Origin: an uncultured virus (IMG/VR IMGVR_UViG_3300012017_001157)
Taxonomy: Duplodnaviria > Heunggongvirae > Uroviricota > Caudoviricetes
Direction: 5' to 3' (one strand)
IMG/VR virus record: IMGVR_UViG_3300012017_001157
Span: 1 to 64,000 of that record
Length of the DNA stretch: 64,000 bases
Position numbers and translations under genes: made by a program. This document shows, in pieces, positions 3,701 to 47,694 of this stretch; the first letter of the stretch is position 1; each line of letters opens with the position of its first letter. Below the pieces are notes generated by a model. It saw only the letters and a program-made list of their open reading frames with translations. It searched no databases and was not told the origin of the DNA.

Positions 3701-4524
3701 TTAAATTCTTTCTTTGCCCAAAAGAATTTCTTGTACGGAGCCCTAAATACGCTATTGAGCCGTGCAAAGATTTTTAAACCGCCGCGCTCCAGTTCTGCTG
3801 CGTCTTCTTCTGAGTCAGAAATATATGACGACCAGGACTCCCTTTTAAAAGGAATCACCTGGGCTAAAGGTGTTCCCGCTGGAACAATCCCATCAAAATG
3901 AGGATCTTTGAACACCATCATAAAGTTGATTTGTGGCGCAAATTGGTCAGAATCAATTACCCCAGGGACTATTTCCCAATACTTGCTCGGGTTGTTTAGC
4001 GGCTCCGTAATAATTACAGAATATCCCGGAGGTGTCATAATTCTCCATGGGGTAAAAACTTTTCTTAAGCGCTGACCAGAATTCTGGCATAGCGGGTGGG
4101 TCATGGCCTGTCCGTAGTCATGATGGCTTATTTCTAGGGACGGGATTCTTTCTAGCCGTCTTGGGTGCGTTGCCTCAATCACCACCTCTTCTTGGGGGCA
4201 ATCTGGAACGTTAGTGTTTAAGTCGCCAGTGTATGGCTTTACATACATTTCGGCAGTAGTAACAAGACCGTATCCAAGCGTAAGCGAGTCAAGGATTGGA
4301 ATGCACCGCTTGATGGTGGGCATCTCGTTTCCGTTCAATATGTTAATGCTGTCGTCGTTGTCAGCTAAGCCGTTAAATCCGCCGTGGGACGGCATATCCT
4401 TCCACCAGTCGGCCAGCATCTTTGACATTGGTCGAGGGAGCGACTCTGGGTTTACGTCAACATTGCCCCAGTGACCGTAGTTTGAAAATATCGCTATGCG
4501 CTTATCTTTGGTCATATGGCGCAC
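3697..4524 (-). CDS. Conserved phage protein, paralog 1 of 3 (DUF6065-like)
   Basis: WWKDMP, TIKRC.P.LD..GY, W.I.TPPGYS, GTPLAQ.IPFKRE.W shared with 6235-7092 and 7092-7859. Confidence 0.6.
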   Translation of the reverse strand: MRHMTKDKRIAIFSNYGHWGNVDVNPESLPRPMSKMLADWWKDMPSHGGFNGLADNDDSINILNGNEMPTIKRCIPILDSLTLGYGLVTTAEMYVKPYTGDLNTNVPDCPQEEVVIEATHPRRLERIPSLEISHHDYGQAMTHPLCQNSGQRLRKVFTPWRIMTPPGYSVIITEPLNNPSKYWEIVPGVIDSDQFAPQINFMMVFKDPHFDGIVPAGTPLAQVIPFKRESWSSYISDSEEDAAELERGGLKIFARLNSVFRAPYKKFFWAKKEFK

Positions 4525-5135
4525 ACCGAATCATGGGCAATAACAGCTGCAATTCTTTGATTTCCCCATAAATCGGACAGGAAATTATTCCCTTTGTTGG
4601 CGTAGATCTGGCTTAATCCCCGCCTCTTATCTCCGGTGTGCCACATCGGCATTGTGTACCTGCGACCAGAAGTTACCATTTCAACCTCGTGCAAATACTC
4701 CCACCCGCCGCTTGGGAAGATCGCCGCGGATAGCGGCTCAGGATGGTACCGCATGTTGTGATTTGGAAACACTATGTCCCCACCAGTAAATTCTCCACCA
4801 AGATAAATAACGCTGCTAAAGATAATATGCTCAGAACCAGTGTGGGAGTCAGTGTGCCCGCCCGCCTCTGCCCCAGCGACCCAAAGGGAGGCGTGACATT
4901 GGGTTGTATAGAGCGGCGGCGCCCATCCAAACTCCTCTCGGTGGGCATCTAGTATTTTGTCAGAATACTTTTTAAGAATCATCTGCGATTCAGAATGATT
5001 TTCAGAAAGCACAGAGATGTTTGGATTGTGGTTGTCAATAAATGGTATGCTTGGACCAGCGTCAATAAGAGAAATCATTCTTGCAGCGTCTTCTGGCTCA
5101 ACAAAATTCTTGATTATTTTGATTCTATGACCCAT
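4512..5135 (-). CDS. 2OG-Fe(II) oxygenase, prolyl-4-hydroxylase-like
   Basis: HTD...SSVIYL...FTGG.I.FP...HEV..VTSG.RY gives the HxD...H...R signature. Confidence 0.85.
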   Translation of the reverse strand: MGHRIKIIKNFVEPEDAARMISLIDAGPSIPFIDNHNPNISVLSENHSESQMILKKYSDKILDAHREEFGWAPPLYTTQCHASLWVAGAEAGGHTDSHTGSEHIIFSSVIYLGGEFTGGDIVFPNHNMRYHPEPLSAAIFPSGGWEYLHEVEMVTSGRRYTMPMWHTGDKRRGLSQIYANKGNNFLSDLWGNQRIAAVIAHDSVCAI

Positions 5136-6057
5136 TTTGCTCCTCCGGTCCGCAGGTTTGGTGACGAATCTTTGTGTCTCTTTCGCATTTTATGATTGTC
5201 AAGATAAGGCTTCGGTAAAGGTCAACTTCTAGCTCTTCCTCGCGGTAGTCCATGTGCTTCCATGTCGTTATCATATCTGAGAATACCACATTTGCCCCAG
5301 ACTCTATGGCCAGCCTCCTGAGAAGGCTAGATGGAGTTGAGGAATGAAAAAGGTTTCCTGCAAGCATATCCTGAAGGTACTGTGACTCAGTTTTTGCAAA
5401 ACCCCAGTCTATGATTGCTAGGTAGGTTGTCCCTACCCTTGATAGTATGTTCCTAATGTAGTTTGATTTGGCGGGGGAGTAAGCAAAAACTCCGCTTGCT
5501 GGGTCAACATCGCCGCAGGAGTTATCGTCAAGTTGACAGTTTGGAATATTCTCATAATACGGTACCCCGTTATGCCCGACTGCTAGTTCTTGCAGCGCCC
5601 CCGAGGGGTAAAGCCTTCTCATCACCGTAAACGGGAGCGCGTCAAGGAACTGATTTGCAATGACCACTGCCGTCCCGCCGTCTTTTTCGGGAATTAACCC
5701 ATCATCAATTATTGAGTCACAATGCCCCTTGCGCCGAAGAATCGCCTGAAGCTTTGGGCTAAATTCTGAGCAGACCACCCTTGGAGTTGATTCCAAGTTC
5801 ATTAGATTTAGGACTCCAGAGGATAGCGTCCCAGCCCCGTCCCCGTCAAAACGAAGAGTATCTATTTCCCCAATAGAGGATATCCACCGCCCCAGTGCGC
5901 GCTGAAATACTGGACCGTTTGAGTTGGAGTAAAGCCCCTCAACGACCCAGTTTATATCCCCCTTATATTGACCAGATTCCCCGGTTAATCCATTCTGGGC
6001 AATAAACCTATATCTATGGGGTAGGTTTGGTGTCACTGCTTTGACCCCACTTTCCAA
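5125..6057 (-). CDS. SAM-dependent methyltransferase, MidA/NDUFAF7-like
   Basis: DGAGTLS glycine motif, IANQFLDALPF (cf. ANEFFDALP) and IDWG (cf. IDYG). Confidence 0.6.
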   Translation of the reverse strand: MESGVKAVTPNLPHRYRFIAQNGLTGESGQYKGDINWVVEGLYSNSNGPVFQRALGRWISSIGEIDTLRFDGDGAGTLSSGVLNLMNLESTPRVVCSEFSPKLQAILRRKGHCDSIIDDGLIPEKDGGTAVVIANQFLDALPFTVMRRLYPSGALQELAVGHNGVPYYENIPNCQLDDNSCGDVDPASGVFAYSPAKSNYIRNILSRVGTTYLAIIDWGFAKTESQYLQDMLAGNLFHSSTPSSLLRRLAIESGANVVFSDMITTWKHMDYREEELEVDLYRSLILTIIKCERDTKIRHQTCGPEEQNGS

Positions 6058-6238
6058 TTGGACATTCAGAATGCGGAAGTTGAGCCTTTAGCTTCATAAA
6101 GCATAGGCACTTCTTGCACTGACCAGAAAGGCGGATAAAGTGATCGCAAGACCTGCAAGCGCTGAGACGCTCTTCAAGCACCTCGTCTTTCACTCTTCCA
6201 ATATTTGGGTTGAGCATATCCCACGGCTTTGAACTCAT
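6014..6238 (-). CDS. Small Cys-rich protein (DUF6171-like)
   Basis: ERL..C.SC...CKKC.CFM.LK..L...CPIGKW pattern. Confidence 0.65.
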   Translation of the reverse strand: MSSKPWDMLNPNIGRVKDEVLEERLSACRSCDHFIRLSGQCKKCLCFMKLKAQLPHSECPIGKWGQSSDTKPTP

Positions 6239-7092
6239 TTTGAACCACCAACTTCTTTGACTGACTCTCCGTGCATAACTGGGCACCTTCCCTCCGCGGG
6301 GATGCCGCTGGCTGGCTGGTGTTCGGTAATATCGTTATATGTCTTTTTCTTCCAGAATAGTTTTCGGTATGCACCGCCAAATACATTTCTGGTAAGTTGT
6401 ACATATTTAGCTCGGTGGGATGGCTCAAACGGAAGCCTCTTGGCGCTCCACTCTTCTCTCTTTATTGGGATTATTTGGAATATCGGCGTTCCCTTTTCAA
6501 TGACCCCAGTAAATTTCTTGTCTAAATAAAATGTTATTTCTGATCGGAGCGGGAAATCATCAGCGTCCACAATGGCAGACATTGTTCTAAATGGAAGATC
6601 ATTTCGGTTTAGTGGATGAGTTATAAGAACCGACCACCCCTTAGGAACGCCAAACTCAAACGGCTGAATCCAGAGATATGGGTTTGGCTCGTACCCTTCT
6701 GGGGCCGGGAATCCAGACATAGAATTAGGGTTCCTTGGGCTCCTTGCTGGCTCCCAAAGGAATTGCTGGGGCCATGCGATCCTCGTTTCCCCACGCTCAT
6801 TCCTTGTTATCTGGAGGTCTGTTGAAAGCTCCTGGATGAATCCCGCAGTAAACGCATCAATCAGGGGGACGCACGCCTTAACGGTGTGGTTGTATTCACT
6901 ATTGTTCTGGTTAAATTTTTCCATTCCAGGAACGTATTGCGGAATGTTTTTATACCATTGGGGGATGTAGTCCTTTGCTGGCATTGGGTGAACAAAGCCG
7001 GTTCCTTCAAGCTGCAGTTCCTCCGGTCTCCACGTAACGGTCTTCCCTGCGGGGCGATTAAAAATAGAGGAGATTGCATTTTTTATATTCAT
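6235..7092 (-). CDS. Conserved phage protein, paralog 2 of 3 (DUF6065-like)
   Basis: IPQWYK, TVKACVP.ID..GF, KGTPIFQIIPIKREEW. Confidence 0.6.
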   Translation of the reverse strand: MNIKNAISSIFNRPAGKTVTWRPEELQLEGTGFVHPMPAKDYIPQWYKNIPQYVPGMEKFNQNNSEYNHTVKACVPLIDAFTAGFIQELSTDLQITRNERGETRIAWPQQFLWEPARSPRNPNSMSGFPAPEGYEPNPYLWIQPFEFGVPKGWSVLITHPLNRNDLPFRTMSAIVDADDFPLRSEITFYLDKKFTGVIEKGTPIFQIIPIKREEWSAKRLPFEPSHRAKYVQLTRNVFGGAYRKLFWKKKTYNDITEHQPASGIPAEGRCPVMHGESVKEVGGSK

Positions 7093-24627: not shown

Positions 24628-24703
24628 GCCGTCGTAGCTCAGTGGATAGAGCAAGGGACTTCTAAGCCTTTGGTCGCAGGTTCGATTCCTGTCGACGGCG
24701 CCA
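24628..24703 (+). tRNA. tRNA-Arg(UCU)
   Basis: Acceptor GCCGTCG/CGACGGC, D-arm TAGCTCAGTGGATAGAGC, anticodon loop CT-TCT-AA, GGTTCGATTCC, encoded CCA. Confidence 0.93.
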
Positions 24704-25738: not shown

Positions 25739-25780
25739 CTAAAGCTAGACCGTCAAATAACTTATACACACTTGTGTATA

Positions 25781-26791
25781 ATGCCGCCCATGAAGAGAAT
25801 TGTTGTGACCGGGGCTGGCGGATTTATCGGCGGCTGGCTTACTGCGCGCCTTGCGGCAAACCCAATGAACCACGTTGTAGCCGTGGACAAGAAGCCGCTA
25901 AAGGAATGGGAGCAGGAAAGCACCTCTGAAGTTGTTCCGGCTGCCGATCTTTCTAACCCAAATGTATGCAAACTGATTACCCGAGATGCCGACGAGGTTT
26001 ATAATCTTGCGGCAGACATGGGCGGGATGGGCTTTATCGAGCACCACAAGGCGGACTGCATGCTCTCAGTTCTTGTAAGCACGAACATGCTTGTTGCCGC
26101 CAAGGAGAACAACGTCAAGAGATTCTTCTATTCCTCAAGCGCGTGTGTGTACGCCGCAGACAAGCAGACCGACACAGATGTCACCGCGCTTAAAGAGGAA
26201 GACGCGTATCCTGCAATGGCTGAAGACGGATACGGCTGGGAAAAGCTTTTCTCGGAAAGAATGGCGCGACACTTCCGCGAAGACTATGGTCTCGAGACAA
26301 GGGTTGCGAGATACCACAATGTTTACGGTCCAAAGGGAACGTGGACTGGAGGCCGAGAAAAAGCGCCAGCAGCAATCTGCCGAAAGGTTGCCACCGCTGT
26401 AATCACCGGAAAAAACGAAATTGAAATTTGGGGCGATGGAGAGCAGACGCGTTCGTTTATGTACATTGATGATTGCGTTGACGGGACGATTAAAATTGCT
26501 CAGTCCGACATTGTAGAACCACTGAATCTTGGCTCATCAGAGCTTGTTTCCATAAACCAGTTAGTTTCTATCGTAGAAGACATCGCTGGTGTAAAACTGA
26601 AAAGAAGTTACAACCTTGACGCGCCAAAGGGAGTGCGCGGAAGAAACAGCGATAACACGAAAATTCAAGAACTGCTTGGCTGGCAACCATCAATATCTTT
26701 GCGTGACGGGCTGAAAAAGACATACGCGTGGGTTTATGACCAGGTTGCTGAATCGATTGCCAGCGCGAAAGAAAAGGAGTGTGGCTCATAA
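25781..26791 (+). CDS. NAD-dependent epimerase, GDP-mannose 3,5-epimerase-like
   Basis: VTGAGGFIG, NLAADMGGMGFI, SSSACVY, YGWEK, GGREKAPAA.CRK, GVRGRNSDN. Confidence 0.88.
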   Translation: MPPMKRIVVTGAGGFIGGWLTARLAANPMNHVVAVDKKPLKEWEQESTSEVVPAADLSNPNVCKLITRDADEVYNLAADMGGMGFIEHHKADCMLSVLVSTNMLVAAKENNVKRFFYSSSACVYAADKQTDTDVTALKEEDAYPAMAEDGYGWEKLFSERMARHFREDYGLETRVARYHNVYGPKGTWTGGREKAPAAICRKVATAVITGKNEIEIWGDGEQTRSFMYIDDCVDGTIKIAQSDIVEPLNLGSSELVSINQLVSIVEDIAGVKLKRSYNLDAPKGVRGRNSDNTKIQELLGWQPSISLRDGLKKTYAWVYDQVAESIASAKEKECGS

Positions 26792-27345
26792 TGGGAGAGA
26801 AGAGGCTTTCAATACTTATCCCGACGCTTCAAAAAAGAAGCAAGCTTTGCCAGGAGTTGACCGACGAGCTGACAAGGCAGTTGACCACCGAAGTCGAGTT
26901 TATGCTTCTCCCGGACGCTGGACAACGAACAATCGGAGAAAAAAGAAACGCACTTCTTGAGGCGGCCCAGGGCGACTATGTTGCATTTATTGATGACGAC
27001 GACATGATTAGCCCAGACTACATTGATAAGGTCATGAAGGCGCTTGAGGAGGACCCAGACTGCGCGTCCCTTACTGGCCTTATTTACCAGGGGAATTCTT
27101 CCCCGAGAACCTTTGTTCACTCCATCGACTACGAGGGTTGGTACACGAAGGATGGTATTGACTATCGATACCCAAATCACCTAAACGCCGTCAAGAAAAA
27201 GTATGCTCTGAAAGTTGGGTTCCCGGAAATTAACCACGGAGAAGACCGAGCCTACTCCGACAGAATTCAGCAGTATCTGAAGAAAGAATCAAAGATCGAG
27301 GGAGTGATTTATCACTACTACCCCGGCGGATCTAGGGAAAAGTGA
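26779..27345 (+). CDS. Glycosyltransferase family 2
   Basis: LSILIPT, IGEKRN.L...A.GDYVAFIDDDD, GED. Confidence 0.85.
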   Translation: MWLIMGEKRLSILIPTLQKRSKLCQELTDELTRQLTTEVEFMLLPDAGQRTIGEKRNALLEAAQGDYVAFIDDDDMISPDYIDKVMKALEEDPDCASLTGLIYQGNSSPRTFVHSIDYEGWYTKDGIDYRYPNHLNAVKKKYALKVGFPEINHGEDRAYSDRIQQYLKKESKIEGVIYHYYPGGSREK

Positions 27346-30995: not shown

Positions 30996-31071
30996 GGGGA
31001 CGTAGCTCAACGGTTAGAGCACCGAGCTTATATCTCGGCGGTTCCTGGTTCGAGTCCAGGCGTCCCTACCA
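30996..31071 (+). tRNA. tRNA-Ile(UAU)
   Basis: Acceptor GGGGACG/CGTCCCT, anticodon arm CCGAG-CT-TAT-AT-CTCGG, GGTTCGAGTCC, encoded CCA. Confidence 0.92.
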
Positions 31072-33989: not shown

Positions 33990-34802
33990 ATGCCTAACTG
34001 GTGTGTGAACCAAGTAGACATTAGCGGCGACGAAGCAGAGGTCGCAAGGTTGGTTGAGTTTGTGAAGGGCAGCGAGGGCGACTTCGACTTTGCGAAGATT
34101 GTGCCGCCACCCGATAGCAAGTTCTACGCAATCAACGAGGGTCAGAACGATTTCCAATGCGGCTGTAAGCAGGTGTGGGTTGAGCGAGATGACCTACCAG
34201 AAATCGTTTCGTACACCGATAACGACGGCAAAGATGTAATGCGAAAGCAGGGCGAGTGGTGCGTTGATGGTATTCCAGTTGTGAAGGAAGAATCAAGCAA
34301 CGGCACAATCCAAGATGATACCGCCCTGATGTTTGGCGGTACGCCAGTGTGTCCGATTCACAAGGTCAAGCAGAACTCATCGCACCCAGACTGGTGGTAC
34401 AACTGGAATGTTTCTAACTGGGGCTCCAAGTGGAACTGCGGTGAAGTATGGAGCGACCGCGGCGATGACGATAGCAAGATTGACGGAATCGTTTCGTACA
34501 ACTTTGATACGGCTTGGGCTCCTGCGGAGCCTGTGATTGCCGCGCTCGCCAAGCAGTTTCCAACGCTCGCAATCGCTCACCGATACTGCGAAGGCGGTAT
34601 GGGTTTCGCGGGTGAGATTGTGTACGAGAACGGAGAGGTTGTAAGCGTAAGTGATTACAACGCAGATGATTTGCCAGACGAAGCATGGCACAAGGGCGAG
34701 GACGACGAGATTGAGTACGGCGAGCGTGATTATGATGCCGTACCAATGAACGAGTTTGAGAAGTTCTGTGATAAACACTTCGGCGGCGTTGTCGGGGGCT
34801 GA
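33990..34802 (+). CDS. YubB/DUF1281-like ferredoxin-fold protein
   Basis: MPNWC.N, FDF.KIVP.P, WY.WN..NWG.KWN, FDTAW.P, Y.E.G..FAG. Confidence 0.8.
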   Translation: MPNWCVNQVDISGDEAEVARLVEFVKGSEGDFDFAKIVPPPDSKFYAINEGQNDFQCGCKQVWVERDDLPEIVSYTDNDGKDVMRKQGEWCVDGIPVVKEESSNGTIQDDTALMFGGTPVCPIHKVKQNSSHPDWWYNWNVSNWGSKWNCGEVWSDRGDDDSKIDGIVSYNFDTAWAPAEPVIAALAKQFPTLAIAHRYCEGGMGFAGEIVYENGEVVSVSDYNADDLPDEAWHKGEDDEIEYGERDYDAVPMNEFEKFCDKHFGGVVGG

Positions 34803-36463: not shown

Positions 36464-36581
36464 AGATAATAGTTCGGCTCCAAAGGGCCGCGGCCCTTTG
36501 GACTAGAACTTGACGCAATCTCGGGAAGTATGCGACAATCCACCTAGCGGCAGTTGCCGTTGAGAAAAAAGGAGGACGCAA

Positions 36582-37547
36582 ATGGCACACGAAGTAGAAA
36601 CGATGGCATACAACGCGGAAAGGGGCGCGCCGTGGCACAAACTCGGCGTTGCCAATAATGGACTCACAACGAGCGCGGAGATGATCGTTGCGGCTGGTCT
36701 TGATTGGGCAGTAAAGCAGCAACCGATCTTCACAACGCTTGACGGCAAGCAGATTGCGATCAACGGCAAGCGCGCAAATGTTCGCAGCACCGATGGTTCG
36801 GTCTTGGGCGTTGTCGGTGATCGCTACACGCCAATCCAGAACGACGAGATGATGTCGTTCGCGGACGCGTTGCTTGACGAGGGCGCACGCTACGAGTCGG
36901 CGGGTTCGCTCAAAGGTGGGCAGATCGTCTTCTCCGCGTTGGAGATTCCAGAGAAGATCAAGATCAAGGGCGACAATGGTGATACCAACACCTACCTTGT
37001 GATTGCCAATGGGCACAACGGCTTGTTCCCACTCAAAGCGATGATTACGCCAATCCGCGTTGTTTGTATGAACACGCTCAACGCAGCGTTGGGCAGCGCG
37101 AAGATGTCGTTCACACTTCGCCACACCGCGAAGATTGAGGAGAAAGTCGCAGAGGCGAAGCGCGCACTCGGACTTGCCGCAAGCGCGGTTGAGGAGTTTT
37201 CGGTCATCGGCTCGCGTATGATCGCGGAGAAGATGGATCGCGACGAAGCGTTCCGCGTGATTACGCGCATCTTCCCGCTGTCGGAGTCGGAGAAGCGTGA
37301 GAAGGAAGTAATGTCGGAGCGAGCGAAGGCAACAATCGCGATTCTCAATAACGCGGAGAATCTAGAAGGTTTGCGCGATACGAAGTGGGGCGTATACAAC
37401 GCCATCGCCGAGTATCTGGACTATGGCGTTTCGTATCGCGGCGGGGTACGCTCTTCTGCTTCGGACGCTCGTGCTTCTAGCGTAATGCTAGACACAGGTT
37501 TCGCAGCGAAGACAAAGCGCGAGGCAGTCCTCGCGCTTTCCCGATGA
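36582..37547 (+). CDS. DUF932 / TIGR03299-type phage-plasmid protein
   Basis: PWH.LG, AGLDW.V, Y.P.QN, AGSLKGG, TPIRVVC.NTL, T.WG.YNA..EY.D. Confidence 0.85.
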   Translation: MAHEVETMAYNAERGAPWHKLGVANNGLTTSAEMIVAAGLDWAVKQQPIFTTLDGKQIAINGKRANVRSTDGSVLGVVGDRYTPIQNDEMMSFADALLDEGARYESAGSLKGGQIVFSALEIPEKIKIKGDNGDTNTYLVIANGHNGLFPLKAMITPIRVVCMNTLNAALGSAKMSFTLRHTAKIEEKVAEAKRALGLAASAVEEFSVIGSRMIAEKMDRDEAFRVITRIFPLSESEKREKEVMSERAKATIAILNNAENLEGLRDTKWGVYNAIAEYLDYGVSYRGGVRSSASDARASSVMLDTGFAAKTKREAVLALSR

Positions 37548-37772
37548 TTGAGTTGTTTTGGGGCTTTCTTCTTCTGCTCGCTTCGTTTACATACGCAATC
37601 GTTAGCGAAGTAAGAAAGTAGCCCAAGAAAAACAAGCCCCCTTCGGGGGGCTTGTTTTTTGTTCAGCCCCAAATGGCCGCGGCCATTTGGGTTAGAACCC
37701 CTTGACGGCTGACGGCAAATCTGCTTACAATGGTGTTGCCCCGCTTGGGGTTTGTAATAAAGGAGGCTGGAA

Positions 37773-38419
37773 ATGGGATACGACATCTACTCGCTGCTAC
37801 CAGACCGAAAGGCTGCGGCTGAACACGCAAAGAAGCACCGCTCAATGTGGGTAAACGAGGACGGCTCGTATGACGAGAAGGCTCCCGATACGCTCTACTT
37901 CCGTCTGAACATCTGGGGTATGCCGATGTTGCGTGAGTTCCACGATGCGATTGGCTTTGACGAGGTGAACGAGAATCTACTTGATAATAGCGGCGAGGTC
38001 ATCAAGGACTATGAGTGCCGCGCACTCTCCGAGAAAATCGCGTCTATGAGCGATGAGCAAATCAAAAACGAAATGATTGCCATAATCGCAAACAATCCGT
38101 TTATGGACGACCACACGAAGGCGTTCCCAAGCGAGGAGGCGACTTCGTGGGTTGGTCTTATCCGAGAGTGGCAGGCGTTCTTGGAGAAGTGCGCTGACCT
38201 GAAAGGGTGTGAGGTATTGTGAGCCGCCTATTCCCCACATCTAAACGAAAGCCCTGCGACTGCCCGATGGATAGGCGGGAAGAGCATTGGCTTTGGTCTG
38301 ACTGCGACAAGCATTTAGAGGACTGCTATGTGGTGTGGTGTCAAGAGTGCGACATCTACTCGGCAGACTGCGATAACGGAGGATTGACTTGGCGTGAAAT
38401 CCCAAGCGACTGGAAGTAA
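37773..38419 (+). CDS. Two-gene cassette of hypotheticals (37773-38222, 38219-38419)
   Basis: MGYDIY...YFRLNIW family-type start; second ORF Cys-rich. Confidence 0.75.
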
Positions 38420-38538
38420 ATAAATAGTTCGCCCCCAGATGGCGGCGGCCATCTGGGATAGAACCTCTTGACGGATAGAAGCAAGTGGATTTACAATAGG
38501 GCTACCCCGCTTGGGGTGCTGCGAACAAGGAGGCAACA

Positions 38539-39032
38539 ATGGCGTACCTACAAGGCTCAATGACGATGTGTGGCAACGGAGATTGCTACTACGACCAATG
38601 CGAGTGCGAAACGCACGACCACCCGCTCGTTCAGGAGTGCGAGGGCGAGGAAGTGCTGCGACTTGATAAGCGTTGCCCATTTGAGGGCAAGGAGCGAAAG
38701 TTCCCCTATGGCTGGAACGGCGCAGAATACGCCTATGATGAAGTTCGTAATCTCTGCGATGACTGCTATGGTGCGCTTTAATGAGCGACCACTTTGAGAT
38801 TCCTGTTGGCGACCAGCAAGAAGCCGACGAGCGGACGCACCCCTGCGGCGATTGCGGTGAGGTCGTTGAGGATTGGTATCTTGCCGACAACAACTCCTCT
38901 GGGACGCTGCGAGTCTACTGCGGAAAGTGCGAGGAACACCGATCAGACAAGTACGGCTGCGCGATGATTCTTTCCGAAGGCGTGATGTGCCAAGACGGAG
39001 CGTGCGGCTGCGGCGGGACTGGCGTGTATTGA
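38539..39032 (+). CDS. Two small Cys-rich (Zn-binding) hypotheticals (38539-38781, 38781-39032)
   Basis: Multiple CxxC motifs; TAATG coupling. Confidence 0.7.
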
Positions 39033-39153
39033 GCAATAAATAGTTCGCCCCCAAGCACCCGCGGGTGCTTGGGCTGGAACATTTGACGGACAGCCCGAGG
39101 TATGGGACAATCCGATTGTCGGAAGTACCGACGCTGCGAATAAGGAGGAATGT

Positions 39154-39420
39154 ATGTCAACACCGATCGCTTGGCAGTTTGACGCTTCCGTTCATTGCCT
39201 AGCCTGCGCGAAGGCACGCTTCGGCGATACGCTTGACAGCGAAGACACGAAGGATAACGAGGGCAATAATCTTCACCCTGTCTTTGACTGGGACGAAGTA
39301 AACTGGTGCGGTGAATCTTGTGGGACTTGCCTTGAGTGGGCGATTGATCCCGTTGATCACGAGCCGTTCAGTTGCCTGCTAGGATACGACTGCCGCAAGC
39401 CACAAGCCGCGGCACTATGA
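39154..39420 (+). CDS. Small Cys-rich hypothetical
   Basis: HC..CA...D.EGN..HPVF...C..C; own promoter and RBS. Confidence 0.75.
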   Translation: MSTPIAWQFDASVHCLACAKARFGDTLDSEDTKDNEGNNLHPVFDWDEVNWCGESCGTCLEWAIDPVDHEPFSCLLGYDCRKPQAAAL

Positions 39421-39612
39421 CTACGGCGTAGGATAGAGCCTCCCCTACGCCCCAACAGAGGGATCAAGTTGATCGCAGCCAACTTGATCCCTCTTTTTTG
39501 TTCGCCTCAAACGGGCCGCGGCCCGTTTGACTAGAACCTCTTGACGACCTAGTGGTCGCTGTTGTACCCTTGTCTTGCGGCGAAGTAGTGCCGCAGAAAG
39601 AGGAGGCAAGAA

Positions 39613-40175
39613 ATGGGAAAGGGAGATAAGTCCGACTTCGCGGACTTCTCGTTCGTAAGCGAGGGAAGGATTGCCCTCATCACCCCACTCACAGCAGAGG
39701 CTCGCTCGTGGCTGCGCGATAGGGTGGACTCGGAGGCGACCTATTGGGGTCAGGCTCTTGTCGTTGAGCCGCGCTATGCCGAACCGATTCTGGAAGGAAT
39801 CGCGGCAGACGGATTCTCCGTTCTGGGTTGCGTATGAGCAGGGAAGACGCAGCCTTCTACACCTATCACGAGGACGACGAGGCGATCAAAGACCTCGGCG
39901 ACTATCTGGTGTTCAGGTGTGGCGTGATGAACATTAGGTACAAACGAGATAATGGGCAGTTTGTCCATCTTCGCACGACGAGGGACTTGGAAGATGTCGG
40001 CATAGACTCCGACGAGAAACTCGCAGAGGCGGAGAAAGACATTGAGCGATTTGAGTGGATAAATAACTCGTGGTTTGAGTTGATCCACAAATCCGAACTA
40101 GGCGAAGGATACGAACACCCTGTCTTCTATTCGTTGAGCGACGCAATCGCTTCCGCAGAAGCACCAGCAAACTAA
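39613..40175 (+). CDS. Two hypotheticals (39613-39837, 39834-40175)
   Basis: AGGAGG RBS; ATGA coupling. Confidence 0.75.
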
Positions 40176-40268
40176 ATAAATAGTTCGGCTCCAATCACCC
40201 GCCGGTGATTGGAATGGAACTGAAATAGGTGCTTGACAGGTCTGGCGAGGGTGTGGGAGAATCCCCTT

Positions 40269-40497
40269 GTCGGAAGCGATTCTAGATGAAGCGACACCGA
40301 CTAGGTGAGACTCTGGACGAGCGAGCAGATGCCGCAGCCAAAAAATGCGGGTATAGAGACGCAAAGGACGATGACCGCTAGGTGCCAATGGATCGGCGGA
40401 GCGGAAGGAAAAGGAGTCGGGGGAAGTGATTAGCCCCCGATGAATAATCCGAAACGAGACCCCCAGAGCGACGGCTCTGGGGGTTTCGTGCTTTATT
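40269..40497 (+). ncRNA. Putative non-coding RNA cassette (about 230 nt)
   Basis: Type-A element, TTGACA-18-GAGAAT promoter and terminator, but no AAGGAGG-ATG; only a 31-codon ORF (40286-40381) lacking a clear RBS. Confidence 0.5.
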
Positions 40498-40609
40498 AGG
40501 TTCAGCTGGAACAGGCGGCGGCCTGTTCCAATAGAACCTCTTGACACCTTGCAAGAAGTTTGATTACAATGGGTTCACCCCACTTGGGGCGGTAGCAGAG
40601 GAGGCTAAA

Positions 40610-40948
40610 ATGTTCAAGGCTCTGGCAGTTTCACTCAAGGCAAGCGACTTCACGAAGTTCCAGTGCTCGCAGGGCACTTGCGAGGGCGATTGGCTCGTTG
40701 AGCCAAATGTCGCTTCTCGTCTTGACGGATACGATCTGAAGTTCGCTGAAATCTACGGCGATATGTTGGATGGGTTCGCTCAGCCAGACGAGATGATCTC
40801 AACTGAACTTGATGGGACTTACGACAGGTTCGGCAACATCGTCGTCCACTGGCGCAACGATGGATTCATTGACTTCGTTGCCTTCTCAGAGGCGTGGGCA
40901 GCCGAGCGCGAGATGGCTGACATCATCGCGCTCCACCAAGCCGAGTAG
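40610..40948 (+). CDS. Acidic hypothetical protein
   Basis: Own promoter, RBS and cUUCGg terminator. Confidence 0.75.
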   Translation: MFKALAVSLKASDFTKFQCSQGTCEGDWLVEPNVASRLDGYDLKFAEIYGDMLDGFAQPDEMISTELDGTYDRFGNIVVHWRNDGFIDFVAFSEAWAAEREMADIIALHQAE

Positions 40949-41096
40949 TCCAGAAAGCAAAGATGCCGCCTTCGGGCGGCATTTTTGTTCGGCTCCAAGT
41001 GGCCGCCGCCACTTGGAATAGAACCCTTGACGGCTGGCTAGGTGTTCGCTTAGAATCGGAGTACCCCGATTGGGGCAGAGTAGCAAGGAGGCAGAA

Positions 41097-41378
41097 ATGA
41101 GCAAGGCAATCAAGTTGGCAGAGGCAGCCGAAATGATTCGCAGCAGCAACGGCGCAATCTTCGGCGTGGACTTCGTGAAGCGCACGACGGGCGAGGTTCG
41201 CAAGATGACGGCGCGGCTCGGAGTCAAGAAGCACCTCAAAGGTGGCGAGGCTGCGTATGACGCGGCGGCGAAAGACCTCATCTTCGTCTACGACATCACC
41301 AAGAAGGCGTATCGTTCGGTTGCGCTTGACGCAATCACGGCGGTTCGCTTTGGCGGCGAGGTCTACGAAGTCAAGTAA
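41097..41378 (+). CDS. SH3/WYL-like beta-barrel protein (DUF2693-like)
   Basis: F.V.FVK..GE.R.M.ARLGV...VYD....YRS..L..I pattern. Confidence 0.6.
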   Translation: MSKAIKLAEAAEMIRSSNGAIFGVDFVKRTTGEVRKMTARLGVKKHLKGGEAAYDAAAKDLIFVYDITKKAYRSVALDAITAVRFGGEVYEVK

Positions 41379-41502
41379 TCCGACGGAGGTCTGGGCAAGA
41401 AGGGCGAGGGCAACCTCGCCTTTTTTGTTCACCTCACACGGGCCGCGGCCCGTGTGATTAGAACTCTTGACGACAGAATAGAAGTCTGCTTATAATCAAG
41501 TA

Positions 41503-41715
41503 TCGGGTCGTGAGGAGACGACTAGTTGGTGGTAAGAATAACCACCCGAGACGATAAGACTGGCGGGCTTTGGCATTGACCAGCAGGGGTGCCGCCAGTA
41601 GTGGACTAGCGAAAGCGAAAGTCCACCTTCGCAAGAGGATAAGCGTCAATGCCGCGAAAGGGTTGGGGGGGTCGCAACTTGGGGGTGGTTCCCCTAGGCG
41701 ACTCCCCTTCATTTT
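41503..41715 (+). ncRNA. Putative structured non-coding RNA with pseudoknot (about 210 nt)
   Basis: TTGACG-18-TATAAT promoter, no RBS-linked ORF, consecutive hairpins with GNRA loops, loop GGCATTGAC complementary to downstream GTCAATGCC, terminal stem plus T-tract. Confidence 0.7.
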
Positions 41716-41828
41716 GTTCTGCTCCAAGTTGCCGCGGCAACTTGGATTTGAACCCTTGACAGGTCTGGAACTTATCGCGTAAGATTCTGGTGTCGGGGCT
41801 TCCCGATGAGTAGCAAGGAGGCAAGAAA

Positions 41829-42236
41829 ATGGGCAAGGCAATCAAGTTCGGAGTCGGGGCGTTTGAGGCTGGTGCGCCAACTCCCGCGCTGTTCAACTGG
41901 GTTGAGGTCGTGGACTTCAACGATGACGGCAACACGCTCACCGAACTCTACCGCGTGGGCGAGTGGGACATGACGGAGGTTGCGGTTTCTGGTAAGTATG
42001 GCGCAACGAGCGTCGTGCTCTGGTGCGATGAGGAGGGTCTCTACAACGAGCCAGTCCTCCGCAATCATGCGGCGACATCACTCCGCAACGAAATCCTGCG
42101 CGGATACGCTGACCCGATCTACGGCAACTGCGTACTCACCGCAGAGGACGAGGACGGCAAGACGCTCGCGCTCACCGATGAACAGGCTGCGGAAATCAAG
42201 ACGCTGCTAGAACTGGGCAACTACCCAATCAAGTAG
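41829..42236 (+). CDS. DUF3846-like protein
   Basis: LWCDEEGL...N..AT...I.GN.VL...D.DG...LT.EQ. Confidence 0.7.
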   Translation: MGKAIKFGVGAFEAGAPTPALFNWVEVVDFNDDGNTLTELYRVGEWDMTEVAVSGKYGATSVVLWCDEEGLYNEPVLRNHAATSLRNEILRGYADPIYGNCVLTAEDEDGKTLALTDEQAAEIKTLLELGNYPIK

Positions 42237-42403
42237 CGCGCACAAAATCGGGAACGACAACGGCGGGGAGAAATCCCCGCCGTTGTTTCTTTGTGGAGCT
42301 CCAACCTGCCGCGGCAGGTTGGAATAGAACACTTGACGAGCGGCTAGGAGTTCGCTTAGTATTCAGGGGCGGGGACTTCCCGCTAGGTAGCAAGGAGGCA
42401 AAA

Positions 42404-42733
42404 ATGAGCGAAGGCTACAATGGCTGGACGAACTGGGAAACTTGGGTCACCAATCTTTGGATTGAGGAGGGGCTGCTTGACCTCTTTGAGGTTGGCGAGC
42501 AGGCGCGCCACTTTGCAGAAACCAACGATAGCGACGGAAACTTCGCAGCCTATGAAATGGGGAGGTGGATTCGCGAGCAGGTTGAGGAGTTCATCGGCGA
42601 GCAGCCCGCGGGACTCGTTGCGGACTTCGTGGGCGGTTGTCTCTCGTCGGTGAACTGGACGGAAATCGCGAGCCATCACACGGACGAAGCGATTCGCAAC
42701 GAGCAGGAGCAGACGGCGAACGCGGAAGCGTAA
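42404..42733 (+). CDS. Conserved phage hypothetical (YNGWTNWETW family)
   Basis: YNGW.N.ETW..NLW...VNW.EIA. Confidence 0.75.
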   Translation: MSEGYNGWTNWETWVTNLWIEEGLLDLFEVGEQARHFAETNDSDGNFAAYEMGRWIREQVEEFIGEQPAGLVADFVGGCLSSVNWTEIASHHTDEAIRNEQEQTANAEA

Positions 42734-42865
42734 ACGAAAGCGGCAGGATTTTAGGTCGGCTCCACCCTGCCGCGGCAGGGTGGAATAGAACGCTTGACAA
42801 CCAAGCGGGAGTTCGCGTAGTATTGCCTTGCGGCACCTGCCGTAGAGGTAGCATAAGGAGGCAAG

Positions 42866-43150
42866 ATGTTTGGAGGGGACTTCGGTATCCAGGCAACCTA
42901 TGTGACGCGGTTCGTATCCACACCAGGGCACGGATACCTCGTAGCGGAGAAGGCAATGCTTCGCACGCTTGGTATCGCGGACAAGGTGAGCAACTGCTCG
43001 TATGAGCGCAATGGTAGCGTCTACCTAGAAGAAGATTGCGATGCGCCTCTCTTCATCGCGGCGATGGAGAAGAAGGGATTCTCGGTTTCATACAACTCGG
43101 TCAATGTTGATGATGAGTTCATTGACAAGATGGACTACTATCGCGGATAG
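42866..43150 (+). CDS. Conserved phage hypothetical (PGHG...YLEEDCD family)
   Basis: Motif pattern; own promoter, RBS and terminator. Confidence 0.75.
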   Translation: MFGGDFGIQATYVTRFVSTPGHGYLVAEKAMLRTLGIADKVSNCSYERNGSVYLEEDCDAPLFIAAMEKKGFSVSYNSVNVDDEFIDKMDYYRG

Positions 43151-43329
43151 CGCGCACAATCGTTAGCAACACACCAGCGGGATGCTACCCCCGCTGGTGT
43201 TTTCTTTTGTTCGGCTCTCGTGCGCCGCGGCGCACGAGACTCTCCCGAAACTAGGGGCTTGACGGATTGGAAATGGCGACTCTATGATGGGGCTACCCCG
43301 CTTGGGGTGGTAGCAATAAGGAGGCAGAA

Positions 43330-43539
43330 ATGTTCAGGTGCGATTGGTGCAGCGAAACAATCACCAGCGAGGACGGCAAGTGGACGGACGAGTTCAGCGG
43401 AGTCTGGTACCACGACTATTGCGGTAAGGAGTTCCGCGACGAACTCCGCGCTGAGGCAGCCGCGCTGCTTGGCGACAAGGACGCGATGATGTACGAGGAC
43501 GATTGGGACGGCTCGCAGTACCTCTGGGATAGGCGATAA
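43330..43539 (+). CDS. Small hypothetical, last plus-strand cassette
   Basis: CDWC...H..C; own promoter and RBS. Confidence 0.7.
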   Translation: MFRCDWCSETITSEDGKWTDEFSGVWYHDYCGKEFRDELRAEAAALLGDKDAMMYEDDWDGSQYLWDRR

Positions 43540-43760
43540 CTAACTAGCCCCCGCAGGTCTGGGACTTGCGGGGGCATAACATTTGTGGGGGCATTACGGG
43601 CCGCGGCCCGTAATGTTGGAACTTATATTATTCCCCGTTTATATTATTTATGTTATTTACTTATCACTTGTGTGTTAGACATCTAACAACAGCACCCAGG
43701 GTGCTGCGATAGAGCCTCCCCCCGACCACCGCGCCTGCGGCGATCGGGGGGAGGACTCCG

Positions 43761-44940
43761 TTAGCGCCAGCCGTCCTCGTGCTGCGTCAACGGATCGGTT
43801 TCATCTTCGCGCTTCGACGCGTAATCCAGGTTGCGCTCCTTTCGATCTTCCTCGTCGCGCTGCCACTCTTCTTCGCGCTCCTCGACGCACTCCTCGCAAA
43901 GAATCGCGTCGAAGTCGCTGTGCGGCTCAACGCTCGACAAAGCGCTTGTTCCGCAATCCTCACACTCGACGCAATCGTCGCAAAGCATTTGCTCGATCGT
44001 TTCGCGGAAAGAAACTTTCGCCGCGTGCGGAGTGCCTTCATCGATTCCGCAATCCTCACATCGCTGCTCGTCAATGCAGCATTGTTTGCAATCTCCTTTC
44101 TTCGTCATCTCGCATTGTCCGTGTGCTTCACACTCAAACATCGTGAACCTCCAATGCTGTTGCGAGGTGCGAGCGCCGCGCGCCCGCACCCCGCTGTGAT
44201 TACGCGTTAGCAGCGTCGCGCTGCTTCGCTGTTGCTTTCGCAACCGACTTCATCGCGCTTGCAAGTTTCGCTTGCAGCGCGCTCGTGTTCTCCTCGAAGT
44301 ATGCGAGCGTTGCCGTTGCCGTTGCGAGTGCCGCTTCCGACTTCGCAACCAACTTCTTGTTTGGCTTCGACTCGATCGCAAGTTCCACGAGTGTTGCGCG
44401 CTCAAACTCGACAACATCGGCAGCAAGCGCGCGCTGCTCAATGCTGCGTGCAAGCAACTTGTTGATCACGCCGATCGACTCCGTTGCTGTGCGCTTTGTT
44501 TGCTTTGCTTTCTTGCTCATTGTGCTGTCCTCCAAACTTGTGGAGTGTGGAAGCGCCGCGCGCTTCCACACTCCTTTGCTTCACTCAACGACGCAGGTTT
44601 CTGCTTGGTCGATGTAGATGTCCATACGCGTTGCAACCGCGTCGCAATCCGCGCACTCCCATCGACCGAGAGCAGCAATCTCCTCGTCGTGCTCGTCGCG
44701 ATGCTGCGACAACCACGCGGCAATCTCTCCCGCGTAGTCGTGCGGCGATTCGATTGCGTCGACCGCGTGGTCGGCGGTGTCGAGCGTTCGCGCAAACTCG
44801 ACAACATACTCGTTGAGAAGTTGCGCGTACGCCACACGCGCTTGCAGCGAGTTGCTGCGATTCTCAACAAACTTCCAATGGTGCGTGGTGAGTTGAGCAC
44901 CACGCTCCAACAAGATTGCGATGCGCTTCATCGCTCCCAT
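43761..44940 (-). CDS. Three-gene minus-strand cassette (43761-44141 Cys-rich acidic, 44200-44520 Ala/Lys-rich helical, 44581-44940)
   Basis: Each has a GGAGG RBS and a preceding hairpin. Confidence 0.75.
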
Positions 44941-45201
44941 CGTGAACCTCCAATGCTACCTGCGACGCTTCACCATCACATCGGCTCCTTCGCCGTAGTG
45001 CCGCCGCTGCACCCATCATCAGGCTTCTACTCCGTGAGATTTTTTTTCTCGGGTCGTACGCGCCGGAGGCGCGCCCATGGAACTTATTCCTCTTATTTAT
45101 TTATTTATATTGTGAGGGGGTTAGAGATATAACAGCAGCACAGGGTGCCGCGGTATAACTAACCCCCCTCCCACCGCGCTGGGTGGAAGGGGGGCTAGAC
45201 T

Positions 45202-46358
45202 TTAGGAGATCGTGAAGCAGCGTGCCACGACGTATCCAGAAGCGTAGTCCTCATGCTGACCACACTCCTTGATGATCTCCTGAACGCTCCGATTGTGAGC
45301 GATCTCAAGATTCTCTGACCACTCCTTCAGGTAGAAGTGACCCGTTGGAAGAATCTTCTCAGTGTTCACCGAGAGCGCGCACAGCAGTTCATCTTCAGTC
45401 CACAACGTAACGGCAGTGTTGCCGTTGTGATACAGGACGATCTGAACTTCTGCGTCGTATTCCGTTTCAAATGCGCGAACCTTGATCTTCTTTCCTTCAG
45501 ACTTGAACATGATTCCCTCCTTCACTAATGGTGAAGTGCGAGCGTCGCATTCGCTCGCACTTCGTTTGACTACTTGGCCGCTACCTTTTCGTACGCGCCA
45601 GAAGCGACTTTGTACGAAACGACGCTCAGCACCTTGTCGCCGCATGAAACGCAAAACGGAACATGCTCGTACGTTTCCCTTACGTCCATCTCGCCGACAA
45701 TGTCCTTCGCCGTGAGTGCGCGGATTGGAAACTCAATCTTCGCCCTGATGATCTCATCAAGATCAAATCCAAGTGTTCCGCATCCAAAGCAAACGTAAAA
45801 CTCGCCAATGTCAAACGCTTCAACTTCAATAGTTTCGTCAACGCGTCCGACTGCGCTCAAACTAACTTTCGTCCTCATGATCATCTCCTTCAATGCTTGT
45901 GAGGTGCGAGCGTCGCATTCGCTCGCACCTCGTTTGATTGAACTGCGACGAGATTCCTACTCGCAGGGTTCCTCGTCGCCGCTCTCAATAGAATGCGCTT
46001 CAGCGTCGCACTCTATACAGTGCCAATAACCAAACTTGCGAGTCATGTACTCCTTCTCTGAAGTTGCGACGTCCATGTTCTCAATGAACTCCGCAACGCC
46101 ATCAAGAAACTTGTGAGGCTTCTCAAGGACGTACATCGCTTCCGCGCCAGTGCTCTTTGTTGCTGCGTACTGCTCAATGATTTCTCGTGAACCATTGTGG
46201 AGCGACCACGCAACATCATCGTAATCATCGTCAGCATCTCTGGCGATGAACTCCCATTCGTGCGTGCGCTCCTCTTGAGCCACGATTGGATTCACGACTT
46301 CACTGACGACTTCAGCGAAGAGGTTTGCGCGCTGTTGCGAGCGTTCCTTCTCGGACAT
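45202..46358 (-). CDS. Three-gene cassette (45202-45510 DUF4313-like, 45570-45878, 45957-46358)
   Basis: Y.NG.TAV.L...LSVN motif in the first; AGGAG RBSs. Confidence 0.7.
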
Positions 46359-46613
46359 CTCTGTCCTCCTTTTTGCTACCGCGCACTTCGGTGTCGCAAC
46401 GGCTCATGCCGCACCGCGTCCGCTGACCCCATCATCGCGTTTCTGTTGATTGAGATTTTTAGGCCGAGGTCGTACACGCCGGAGGCGTGGCCATGGAACT
46501 TATTGCTCTTATTTATATTCATATTGTGTGTTAGATATAGAACTACAGGCCCCAGGGGGCCGCGATAGAGCAATCCCCCCAACCGCGGGACCTCGCGGCT
46601 GGGGGGATGTCTG

Positions 46614-46955
46614 CTAGACGTAGATCGTTTCGCGTTCCTTGAATCCGTAGATCGCACGCTGACGATTCGCCTTCGCAGTGCCTAGCGCAGCGCGCCTGCT
46701 GCTGATGATCGTGGTGGGGTCAACGTGAATCATCCCATCCTCTACCCACGCGCCTGCGTGACGCGTGTTGTACCGTACTGCGCATTCCAACAGTGCAGTG
46801 CGCAGTGCACGCTCAGTAGTATCAAGCGGCAGCAGTACTGCAGTCCGATCAGTGGAACCCACTGCGTACCCGCGTGCAGGATTCACTGCGCGCATTCCGC
46901 GCGCGCGTACCGTCACGCCGCCTAGCGTGGCGATCAGTGCCAATAGCGATTCCAT
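46614..46955 (-). CDS. Conserved phage hypothetical (GG.T...GY.V...G.W...Q.AIY)
   Basis: Motif pattern; GGGAGG RBS. Confidence 0.7.
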   Translation of the reverse strand: MESLLALIATLGGVTVRARGMRAVNPARGYAVGSTDRTAVLLPLDTTERALRTALLECAVRYNTRHAGAWVEDGMIHVDPTTIISSRRAALGTAKANRQRAIYGFKERETIYV

Positions 46956-47228
46956 ACCGTTCCCTCCCGTACTGATGCGACGCCACAGCAGCGCCGCTGA
47001 CCCCATCATCGCCGAGTCATACGGAGAGATTCTTTTTCTGGTGCTGTACGCGCCGGAGGCGTGTCTATCGAACTTATTACTTATATTTAGTTACTTATAT
47101 TCCACAAGAGAGTGCGACCGCCACCTGGGCGCTAGATAAAAAAAGAGAAAAAAATAAAGGAGCGAGCAGGGGGCTCTCTCGTCCCCCTGCTCCCTTGCCT
47201 CGCCCGCCTTTATACGCGGGCCGATCCG

Positions 47229-47459
47229 TTAGGCGATCGCGCGGCGCACGATGCCTTGATGGCGCGATGTGGTCACGCTCCATCGCGTGGGGTCAATGCT
47301 CCACACGCCATTGGTAAAATCCGCGATGCATACGCGGTACGAATACACCATGTATTGCGTACCGATCAATTCGCCGCGGAAATTTCCCGTGTGCGAAACA
47401 AACGGTAGCCGCTCCTTGATGCGGTCTATCGCTTGCTTGCGGTTGATCCGCTTGCCCAT
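47229..47459 (-). CDS. Conserved phage hypothetical (YSY...TTSRHQ family)
   Basis: Motif pattern; AGGAGG RBS. Confidence 0.75.
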   Translation of the reverse strand: MGKRINRKQAIDRIKERLPFVSHTGNFRGELIGTQYMVYSYRVCIADFTNGVWSIDPTRWSVTTSRHQGIVRRAIA

Positions 47460-47694
47460 TTGCGTATCCTCCTATTGCTGCAGCGCCCTTGCTATCGGGG
47501 CTAGGCACATCATCCCCTATTGATACGGCGCGGTATTTCTTCTCAGCTAGTACGCGCCGGAGGCGTGTCTATCGAACTTATTACTTATATATTGTTACTT
47601 ATATATCTCTTGTGAGTTACACATCTAACAGCAGCACGGGGGGCCGCGACAGAACTTTCCCCCCCACCGCGCGTCCGCGGTGAGGGGGAAGTCC

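Follow-up and report, generated by a model that had tools for sequence, protein, structure and literature searches.

The PeSL elements of T4-type phages combine a strong early promoter with a stem-loop terminator and reportedly mediate modular shuffling (PMC2839356). A comparable arrangement is present in the stretch of DNA analysed here (hereafter the window: 64,000 nucleotides (nt), positions 1 to 64,000 of the IMG/VR record IMGVR_UViG_3300012017_001157, from an uncultured virus of the Caudoviricetes), in which an array of small accessory units is bounded by a repeated stem-loop and a strong sigma-70-like promoter, and close relatives differ by the exchange, gain and loss of units of this type. 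Unlike in the PeSL case, the motif has a different sequence, the phage is not T4-like (its portal protein reaches at most 25% identity to those of 50,697 cultured-phage records), and one of the units bears a structured RNA instead of an open reading frame (ORF). This cassette is a gene for a stand-alone, compactly folded non-coding RNA of a new family in uncultured freshwater tailed phages, with a core of about 170 nt and a length of about 215 nt when the terminator hairpin is included. The array is thus a PeSL-like shuffling architecture in a non-T4-like phage; the likeness, an analogy drawn from architecture and not from sequence, would concern the vehicle and not the RNA.

As for the RNA itself, GOLLD was first detected in lake metagenomes, and ROOL is far larger than ~170 nt. 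Many GOLLD members reportedly exceed 800 nt, and both classes often lie near tRNA islands (bioRxiv 10.1101/2024.12.08.627333). The RNA of the window resembles GOLLD and ROOL in being phage-borne, ornate and supported by covariation, with no known function or protein partner; unlike them, it has ~170 nt, lies ~10 kb from the nearest tRNA gene and gives no match to their Rfam models. Packaging RNA of the phi29 type forms an Rfam family and is essential for packaging in phages without a TerL-type terminase. Size, an early promoter, phage encoding and a loop complementarity able to link molecules are points of likeness with our RNA; the differences are the lack of an Rfam match and the presence, in the phage of the window, of a portal and of a TerL-type terminase (Terminase_6C). 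Moreover, the RNA cannot be essential for packaging, because it is absent from a close relative (record ~80% complete).

The RNA shares with riboswitch aptamers of the four-way-junction kind (e.g., the SAM-I type) the junction itself and its conserved strands, as well as a candidate pseudoknot that links a hairpin loop to a joining strand; its conserved, covarying fold, quantified below, is a riboswitch-like trait. Unlike those aptamers, it matches no model and stands free or in a 3' untranslated region (UTR), with no coherent gene set downstream of it. RNA-based counter-defence by phages includes phage tRNAs, antitoxin-RNA mimics and CRISPR-repeat-like RNAs. The RNA is like these in being encoded by a phage, in an accessory region whose content differs from one close relative to the next, and unlike them in being neither a tRNA nor built of tandem repeats, the likeness lying solely in the genome setting. 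Other classes were considered and rejected. Type III antitoxin RNAs (ToxI-like) consist of ~35-nt tandem direct repeats beside an endoribonuclease toxin gene; there is no tandem repeat in 41300-41900, and the ORFs flanking the RNA match only phrog_2267 (unknown function) and DUF3846. A retron RNA was set aside as no reverse transcriptase domain occurs in the 57 ORFs scanned of the 95 candidate ORFs of the window, and a tRNA or tmRNA as the only tRNAs of the window (ARAGORN, Rfam) lie elsewhere (Table 1).

The RNA family and its fold

The family was reached through homologs of both flanking genes, which led to related IMG/VR contigs and to local BLAST of the spacer. Against those IMG/VR loci, BLAST aligned two short conserved spacer blocks only; compared side by side, the spacers form identical helices made from different letters. 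An exact two-anchor pattern (GACGATAAG, a gap of 60-90, GGATAAGCGTCA) retrieved 28 IMG/VR loci and 52 metagenome loci, seven of the latter by chance (L055, L064, L073, L090, L094 and L098, dropped by eye, and L072; none matched the covariance model R1). In the prokaryote genomes of 185,579 species the same pattern gave four matches (L047-L050), all by chance (R1 scored 17.1 bits on L047 and 10.7 bits on L048 and did not match L049 and L050), the pattern being too strict for absence to be shown. Two further scans required one anchor each: all 16 loci of the 3'-side scan also bear the 5' anchor, and all 29 true loci of the 5'-side scan, from which L132, L138 and L142 were discarded as chance loci, also bear the 3' anchor. 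Therefore, the invariance of the core is not solely an artefact of the collection, since the one-anchor scans always recovered the other anchor.

Alignment A2 comprises 46 distinct sequences, and R1 (170 positions, 39 pairs) was derived from a hand-drawn structure; alignment A4, with 48 distinct sequences, was fitted to R1. Among 100 sources, R1 has 81 true matches of 54-188 bits, on IMG/VR and lake-metagenome contigs, corresponding to 48 distinct sequences. Besides this core, R1 has no match in the window, nor in the whole 73-kb record, and there is one RNA copy per genome in the five phage records out of five, four of which are at least 90% complete; three of the five, of 83-85 kb, have terminal repeats.

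Neither a blastn search with 41380-41830 against 50,697 phage records nor an exact 28-mer scan of IMG/VR gave a match. Rfam 15 (4227 models), run over the whole window at gathering score, retrieved two tRNAs only, and a permissive scan of 41300-41900 (E up to 10) added four noise matches to fragments of long non-coding RNAs (E 1.5-4.2; 10.6-13.8 bits vs thresholds of 40-55). The classes without a match include the described riboswitches, the self-cleaving ribozymes, pRNA, GOLLD, ROOL, C4 and 6S, so that the first-pass annotation, which had been made without database searches and had recognised no known ribozyme or riboswitch, agrees with the absence of any family at threshold. In the literature searched for phage structured RNAs and RNA counter-defence the RNA is not described, recent motif catalogues not being searchable by sequence, and the core motifs searched as text retrieved unrelated primer matches only.

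The minimum free energy (MFE) of the single sequence is -91.4 kcal/mol on the + strand (z = -3.94; none of 200 shuffles as good) and -76.8 on the - strand. The core contains nine helices, namely P1, P2, a four-way junction P3/P4/P5/P6 (with P4b and P5b) and then P7 (Table 1). P3 (GACG with CGUC) closes the four-way junction of P4, P5 and P6, with AUAAG on both junction sides. The stems listed in the first-pass annotation all exist and are recovered by the MFE fold; P3 and P7 were absent from that list. In A4, 94.8% of 2081 cells are in standard pairs, against 26-46% when the partners are slid, double-sided changes occur at 31 of 44 pairs, and none of 500 shuffles attains the observed pairing or covariation score. 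Since a fitted alignment leans towards its model, the result of RNAalifold on a plain, unfitted MAFFT alignment matters here: it gives 29 pairs, of which 19 change on both sides. Of the two strands, + is that of the RNA, since one P6 pair is U.G in 44 of 48 sequences and other G.U pairs occur. P7 is weak in the window (2-3 pairs); across the family its loop is (G/A)CGANA, in which the letters C, G, A and A are invariant.

Several variants were observed in the periphery. The P6 tetraloop is replaced by a 14-nt longer insert in L123, L126 and L133 (identical to L131, L141, L146 and L147), so P6 tolerates extension. A clade formed by L002, L004, L005, L012, L085 and L089 has a longer, branched element of ~50 nt in place of P1. 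The variants also look modular, L052 and L086 having P1-P4 in common and different P5 sequences. A mutual-information scan for further tertiary pairs pointed to the non-nested columns 116/146, 128/236 and 77/162, which were set aside, each coming from one clade or from the poorly aligned P4 internal loop.

Table 1. Positions of the RNA, its structural parts and other features of the window
Feature	Position	Strand	Description
Conserved RNA core, P1 to P7	41500..41668	+	Covariance model R1, 151.2 bits, E 4e-50
P1 hairpin	41507..41522	+	GUCGU/ACGAC, loop GAGGAG; 99.6% paired; 4/5 pairs with double-sided change
J1/2 (UAGUU)	41523..41527	+	Nearly invariant; candidate 5' strand of PK1
P2 hairpin	41528..41546	+	GGUGG/CCACC; 100% paired; 4/5 pairs with double-sided change
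P3 5' strand GACG and junction strand AUAAG	41550-41553 and 41554-41558	+	Invariant in 48/48
P4, long irregular hairpin	41559..41599	+	ACUGGCGG/CCGCCAGU; 97.3% paired; 7/7 pairs with double-sided change
P4b, apical stem GC/GC	41573-41574 with 41583-41584	+	94.7% paired; 2/2 pairs with double-sided change
P4 loop	41575-41582	+	AUUGACCA; 7-8 nt across the family
P5 with internal loop	41601..41626	+	GUGGAC/GUCCAC; 98.6% paired; 5/6 pairs with double-sided change
P5b, inner stem of P5		+	GC-GAAA-GC, GNRA cap; 100% paired; 2/2 pairs with double-sided change
P6	41627..41638	+	CUUC-GCAA-GAGG; 100% paired; 2/4 pairs with double-sided change; mostly GCAA-capped in the family
Junction strand AUAAG, P3 3' strand CGUC (41644-41647), A	41639..41648	+	Invariant in 48/48
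P7, short hairpin	41651..41663	+	Loop GCGAAA(G); 77.2% paired; 4/4 pairs with double-sided change
3' hairpin and U-rich tail	41665..41717	+	Hairpin 41665-41708; tail UUCAUUUUGUU; likely terminator
Arms of the 9-bp pseudoknot	41572-41580 with 41645-41653	+	GGCATTGAC with GTCAATGCC; exact complement, not conserved
Sigma-70-like promoter	41467..41496	+	TTGACG 41467-41472, 18-nt spacer, TATAAT 41491-41496; 11/12 matches
Copy of the repeated stem-loop element	41420..41464	+	91% identity to reference; directly precedes the cassette promoter
Copies of the D6/D7 short hairpin	37701-37775, 38467-38541, 40541-40590, 43258-43332		
Genes with DUF1281_C, DUF932, DUF3846, DUF7249	33990-34799, 36582-37544, 41829-42233, 42401-42730		
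Phage tRNA genes, tRNA-Arg (TCT) and tRNA-Ile (TAT)	24628-24703, 30996-31071		Rfam, ARAGORN

The homologs keep the pairings of the stems, as their covariation indicates, and do not keep the 9-bp pseudoknot by which the first-pass annotation had distinguished this RNA. Its exact complement is real, and the two arms are the only exactly complementary 9-mer pair in 41500-41715, yet equally exact 9-bp pairings are present in 298 of 5000 dinucleotide shuffles (~6%), and across the 48 homologs only 61.8% of the cells pair. What remains family-wide is that GUCA of the P3 3' strand matches the P4 loop at three of four positions, the middle position (126/227) being paired in 5 of 47 sequences. The GGCA/UGCC extension is limited to the window and its close variants L053 (8/9 pairs retained), L074 and L077 (7/9 each, by our own count), without any compensatory change, the single change of L053 breaking a pair. 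Furthermore, the 9-bp pairing would take bases of the P3 3' strand, P4b and P7, all kept by the family and the last two supported by covariation, although P7 is weak in the lineage of the window. A fold organised by this pseudoknot, even as an alternative conformer in that lineage, is consequently improbable to us, and we treat the complement as fortuitous or, at most, as a putative lineage-specific alternative conformer.

Another pseudoknot, PK1, is a candidate. J1/2 and positions 3-7 of the P4 loop are complementary over 5 bp; 80% of the cells pair, vs at most 54% when slid, and the loop variants are all transitions that keep a pair or a wobble. The second position presents 5 G-C, 4 A-U and 38 A.C. 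In the clade with the branched element (L002, L004, L005, L012, L085 and L089), J1/2 is UGGUU, a full Watson-Crick match to the P4 loop. Shuffles cannot test PK1 (309/500), because one of its strands hardly varies. PK1 is thus compatible with the family but unproven, and might form within or between molecules. Pairing of J1/2 with the P4 loop between molecules would make the RNA self-assemble into multimers, as do phi29 packaging RNA or the ROOL/GOLLD cages, which we consider very improbable: an A.C apposition occupies the middle PK1 position in 38 of 47 sequences, the shuffles do not separate PK1 from chance, the pairing is equally possible intramolecularly, and the phage has a TerL-type terminase, with which a packaging RNA would not be expected. 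What speaks for multimers is the complementarity with its pair-keeping variants and the reported precedent of kissing loops that join phage-borne ornate RNAs into multimers (bioRxiv 10.1101/2024.12.08.627333).

Regarding coding potential, the first-pass annotation had found no ORF linked to a ribosome-binding site, and indeed 41500-41717 contains no credible gene: only a TTG-start frame of 70 codons (41570-41782) and a 36-codon ATG frame (41649-41759), which reads through the terminator into the next element. The ATG at 41649 is the only one with GAGGA nine bases upstream. These two frames are what could be said for a small protein gene, which, like a chance structure in a spacer, is hardly credible. 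The ATG is retained in 7 of 46 distinct homologs, the longest stop-free run of the + strand ranges from 28 to 88 codons among homologs, the core length varies between 168 and 173 nt in steps of 1-2 nt, the substitutions in the helices are compensatory, and the fold is more stable than its shuffles (see the z above).

Carriage, exchange and presence in RNA libraries

The repeated stem-loop (presumably the type-A element of the first-pass annotation) and the near-consensus promoter (TTGACG-18-TATAAT) are present as predicted, as is the terminator, with its strong hairpin and U-rich tail (Table 1). In the window, 3 nt separate the end of the -10 hexamer from the first model position of the RNA. 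Own sigma-70-like promoters were found in 18 of the 46 distinct sequences, the -10 ending 2-4 nt before the extracted segment, which itself begins a few bases 5' of the conserved end. In 22 of 46, the RNA begins a few bases after the stop codon that ends an upstream ORF of 50 codons or more; by these crude criteria, 2/46 have both a promoter and an upstream stop, and 8/46 have neither. All 45 homologs with sufficient flank have a strong hairpin next to the core on its 3' side, but only part of them a U-rich tail as well (judged by eye). The neighbours are diverse: there are at least five unrelated upstream gene families, one of which lies downstream in three loci, and when the ORFs up to 1.5 kb from 48 loci were clustered, no family was common to all, the clusters being contaminated by shadow ORFs and translated repeats.

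Two comparisons between close relatives inform on the mobility of the RNA. The window and L003 are nearly identical in DNA around the RNA (98% in the upstream gene, 89% in the promoter element, 97% in the next element, 94% in the downstream gene), while the RNA core can be aligned in blocks of 32 nt and 42 nt only, and the 3' hairpin not at all. What occupies the same place in L003 is a divergent variant of the same RNA family. In addition, the RNA is missing from a phage that has the upstream gene of L060 at 97% identity: behind the stop codon come a plain terminator and then the same downstream gene, and R1 with filters off scores at most 4.5 bits in this locus and finds nothing in the 69.7-kb record (~80% complete). 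These comparisons show the RNA as an optional, exchangeable module of an accessory, early-type region, swapped or lost between near-identical phages. They also make a cis-regulatory role for either neighbour unlikely. A riboswitch was likewise rejected by gene context, the genes on both sides differing, many copies lying behind a stop codon and the same flanks occurring without the RNA. Downstream of the RNA terminator, imperfect tandem units of ~8-10 nt (GTTATGG/GTTACGA-like) were observed in L033, L042, L052, L060 and L150; this run (e.g., L150 2790-2860) is present with or without the RNA.

Five runs recorded as RNA hold part of 41380-41830. Four of them, from four studies, were mapped on 40400-42900 and gave the contigs 41515-41775, 41520-41655 (with adaptor letters at both ends), 41444-41637 and 41513-41664. 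Parts of 40400-42900 without contigs were not used as evidence, since the runs were chosen by this very stretch and contigs drop rare sequence. The sequence of the RNA core is therefore present in RNA libraries; strand, ends and level are not readable from contigs. Together with the covarying family, the lack of an Rfam match, the lack of a conserved ORF and the own promoter, this presence upholds the earlier proposal that an early-type cassette of the phage encodes a novel non-coding RNA.

Possible functions of the RNA

Our preferred reading, to which we give a probability of roughly 40%, is that of a trans-acting RNA that binds or decoys a macromolecular partner early in infection. Action in trans is suggested by the own promoter and terminator, by the unrelated neighbours and by the same neighbours occurring without the RNA; the neighbours would then not be its target. 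A specific partner would be bound through the invariant junction core and the conserved loops, and the variable peripheral stems P1, P4 and P5, in which the sequence varies freely provided that pairing holds, would serve as scaffold only. This partner would most likely be a host protein or another macromolecule, titrated or redirected early in infection by an RNA acting as decoy or sponge. By analogy, a role in host takeover or counter-defence would fit the promoter-driven accessory setting and the pattern of presence, absence and allele swapping.

Several points weigh against this reading. As no protein gene is consistently adjacent, the binding of a partner is pure inference, and ribozymes and small-molecule aptamers are equally characterised by invariant junction strands, GNRA-type loops and, possibly, a pseudoknot. 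Of the functions suggested in the first-pass annotation (anti-defence factor, sponge or ribozyme), none is favoured over the others by these results, apart from a cis-regulatory role being unlikely. P3 is without covariation support because it never varies, its support being its complementarity and the MFE fold of the window. The members were collected through exact core patterns, so the known family is a narrow clade and the invariance of its core is partly a product of the collection. Finally, DNA carry-over is possible in RNA libraries, whose contigs give no strand, ends or level, and one contig begins upstream of the promoter (41444) and another passes the terminator (41775).

The complex fold, invariant junction nucleotides and conserved loops would also suit a new self-cleaving or otherwise catalytic RNA that excises itself from an early transcript. 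Such a ribozyme would explain why half the copies, without a promoter of their own, lie just behind a stop codon; the 22 of 46 copies that start there need processing to yield a free RNA, and a weak hint in the same direction is that three of the RNA-library contigs start within 7 nt of one another (41513, 41515 and 41520), ~10-17 nt inside the predicted transcript. Nevertheless, no known ribozyme family matches, the ends of contigs differ from the ends of an RNA, those of the X17 contig are adaptor junctions at a depth of ~3.6 and possibly copies of one fragment, and 170 nt would be large for a self-cleaver in which no cleavage site can be named; we regard this reading as unlikely. The same copies in the 3' UTR of an upstream gene, together with the terminator-like hairpin that comes next in all homologs with enough flank and the contig that crosses the terminator to 41775, could instead indicate a cis element, either a riboswitch or attenuator gating read-through or a 3'-UTR structure shielding the upstream mRNA from exonucleases. 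However, both the downstream and the upstream genes differ, the downstream cassette in the window has a promoter of its own (41756-41785), the promoter transcribes the RNA alone in 18 of 46 copies, the flanking genes are the same with and without the RNA, and P7 stands between the junction and the terminator, with no antiterminator pairing found on inspection. A cis element is, in our opinion, rather unlikely.

Architectures with such a junction and pseudoknot are seen in many riboswitch aptamers. The four-way junction, the invariant single-stranded junction strands and the loop-to-junction pseudoknot candidate, in a free-standing RNA with a strong promoter among accessory genes, might thus belong to a trans-acting aptamer that works as an RNA sponge by binding a small molecule, such as a nucleotide second messenger of host immunity. 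This is quite unlikely: there is no clue to a ligand, stoichiometric sequestering would require very high expression, and no RNA sponge of this kind is known. A bolder and doubtful proposal is that of a protein-free effector of a type that would be new to phages, be it an aptamer soaking up a host immune signal or a new class of ribozyme, carried in a swappable cassette under an arms race; selection of this kind is suggested by the divergent variants that replace each other between near-identical phages.

RNA classes with a complex fold of such size and strong covariation are rarely found, and the earlier ones mostly proved to be riboswitches, ribozymes or parts of ribonucleoproteins. The phage-borne, free-standing, optional and exchanged pattern of the present RNA resembles that of accessory and counter-defence genes. 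Being small and easy to synthesise, the RNA is therefore a concrete candidate for a phage function carried by RNA alone, and the family alignment and R1 are a starting point for annotating lake viromes, where the RNA is now invisible.

The cassette array and the phage

The neighbourhood of the RNA is an array of small promoter-plus-stem-loop cassettes at 36465-43622. The 45-nt repeated element, family D1, has 13 copies in this interval, one before each cassette promoter, and consists of TTTTGTTC, a GC-rich hairpin around GCCGCGGC and TAGAAC. There are 12 promoter-like sites in 39000-44000 vs 2.0 expected, and most D1 copies then carry a sigma-70-like promoter. A near-identical ribosome-binding region (GTAGCAAGGAGGCA..ATG) was observed in each cassette of the array, and several cassettes have a short conserved hairpin (CCCCGCTTGGGG or CCCCACTTGGGG; families D6 and D7) between the promoter and the ribosome-binding site, which may be a shared 5'-UTR element. 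Other repeated intergenic modules, families D2 and D8-D10, occupy 43651-47688 with 3-4 copies each at a spacing of 1.1-1.4 kb; among them are an AT-rich stretch, an inverted repeat (GTTAGA..TCTAAC) and a C-rich hairpin, and they may serve the adjacent block as its regulatory cassette.

In the array, Pfam recognises the domains DUF932, DUF3846, DUF7249 and DUF1281_C (Api92-like), a set typical of the leading regions of plasmids and of integrative and conjugative elements, and the PHROGs found there are only families of unknown function. Elsewhere, Pfam identifies the TerL-type terminase (Terminase_6C), Phage_portal, a prohead protease, tail-fibre repeats, ThyX, MazG, SSB, a DnaC-like ATPase, a PD-(D/E)XK nuclease and many glycosyltransferases. 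The runs that hold the phage sequence are labelled as lake and freshwater samples. Two regions, 1166-7089 and 25772-27342, are unusually rich in glycosyltransferases, epimerase/dehydratase, 2OG-Fe(II) oxygenase and methyltransferases.

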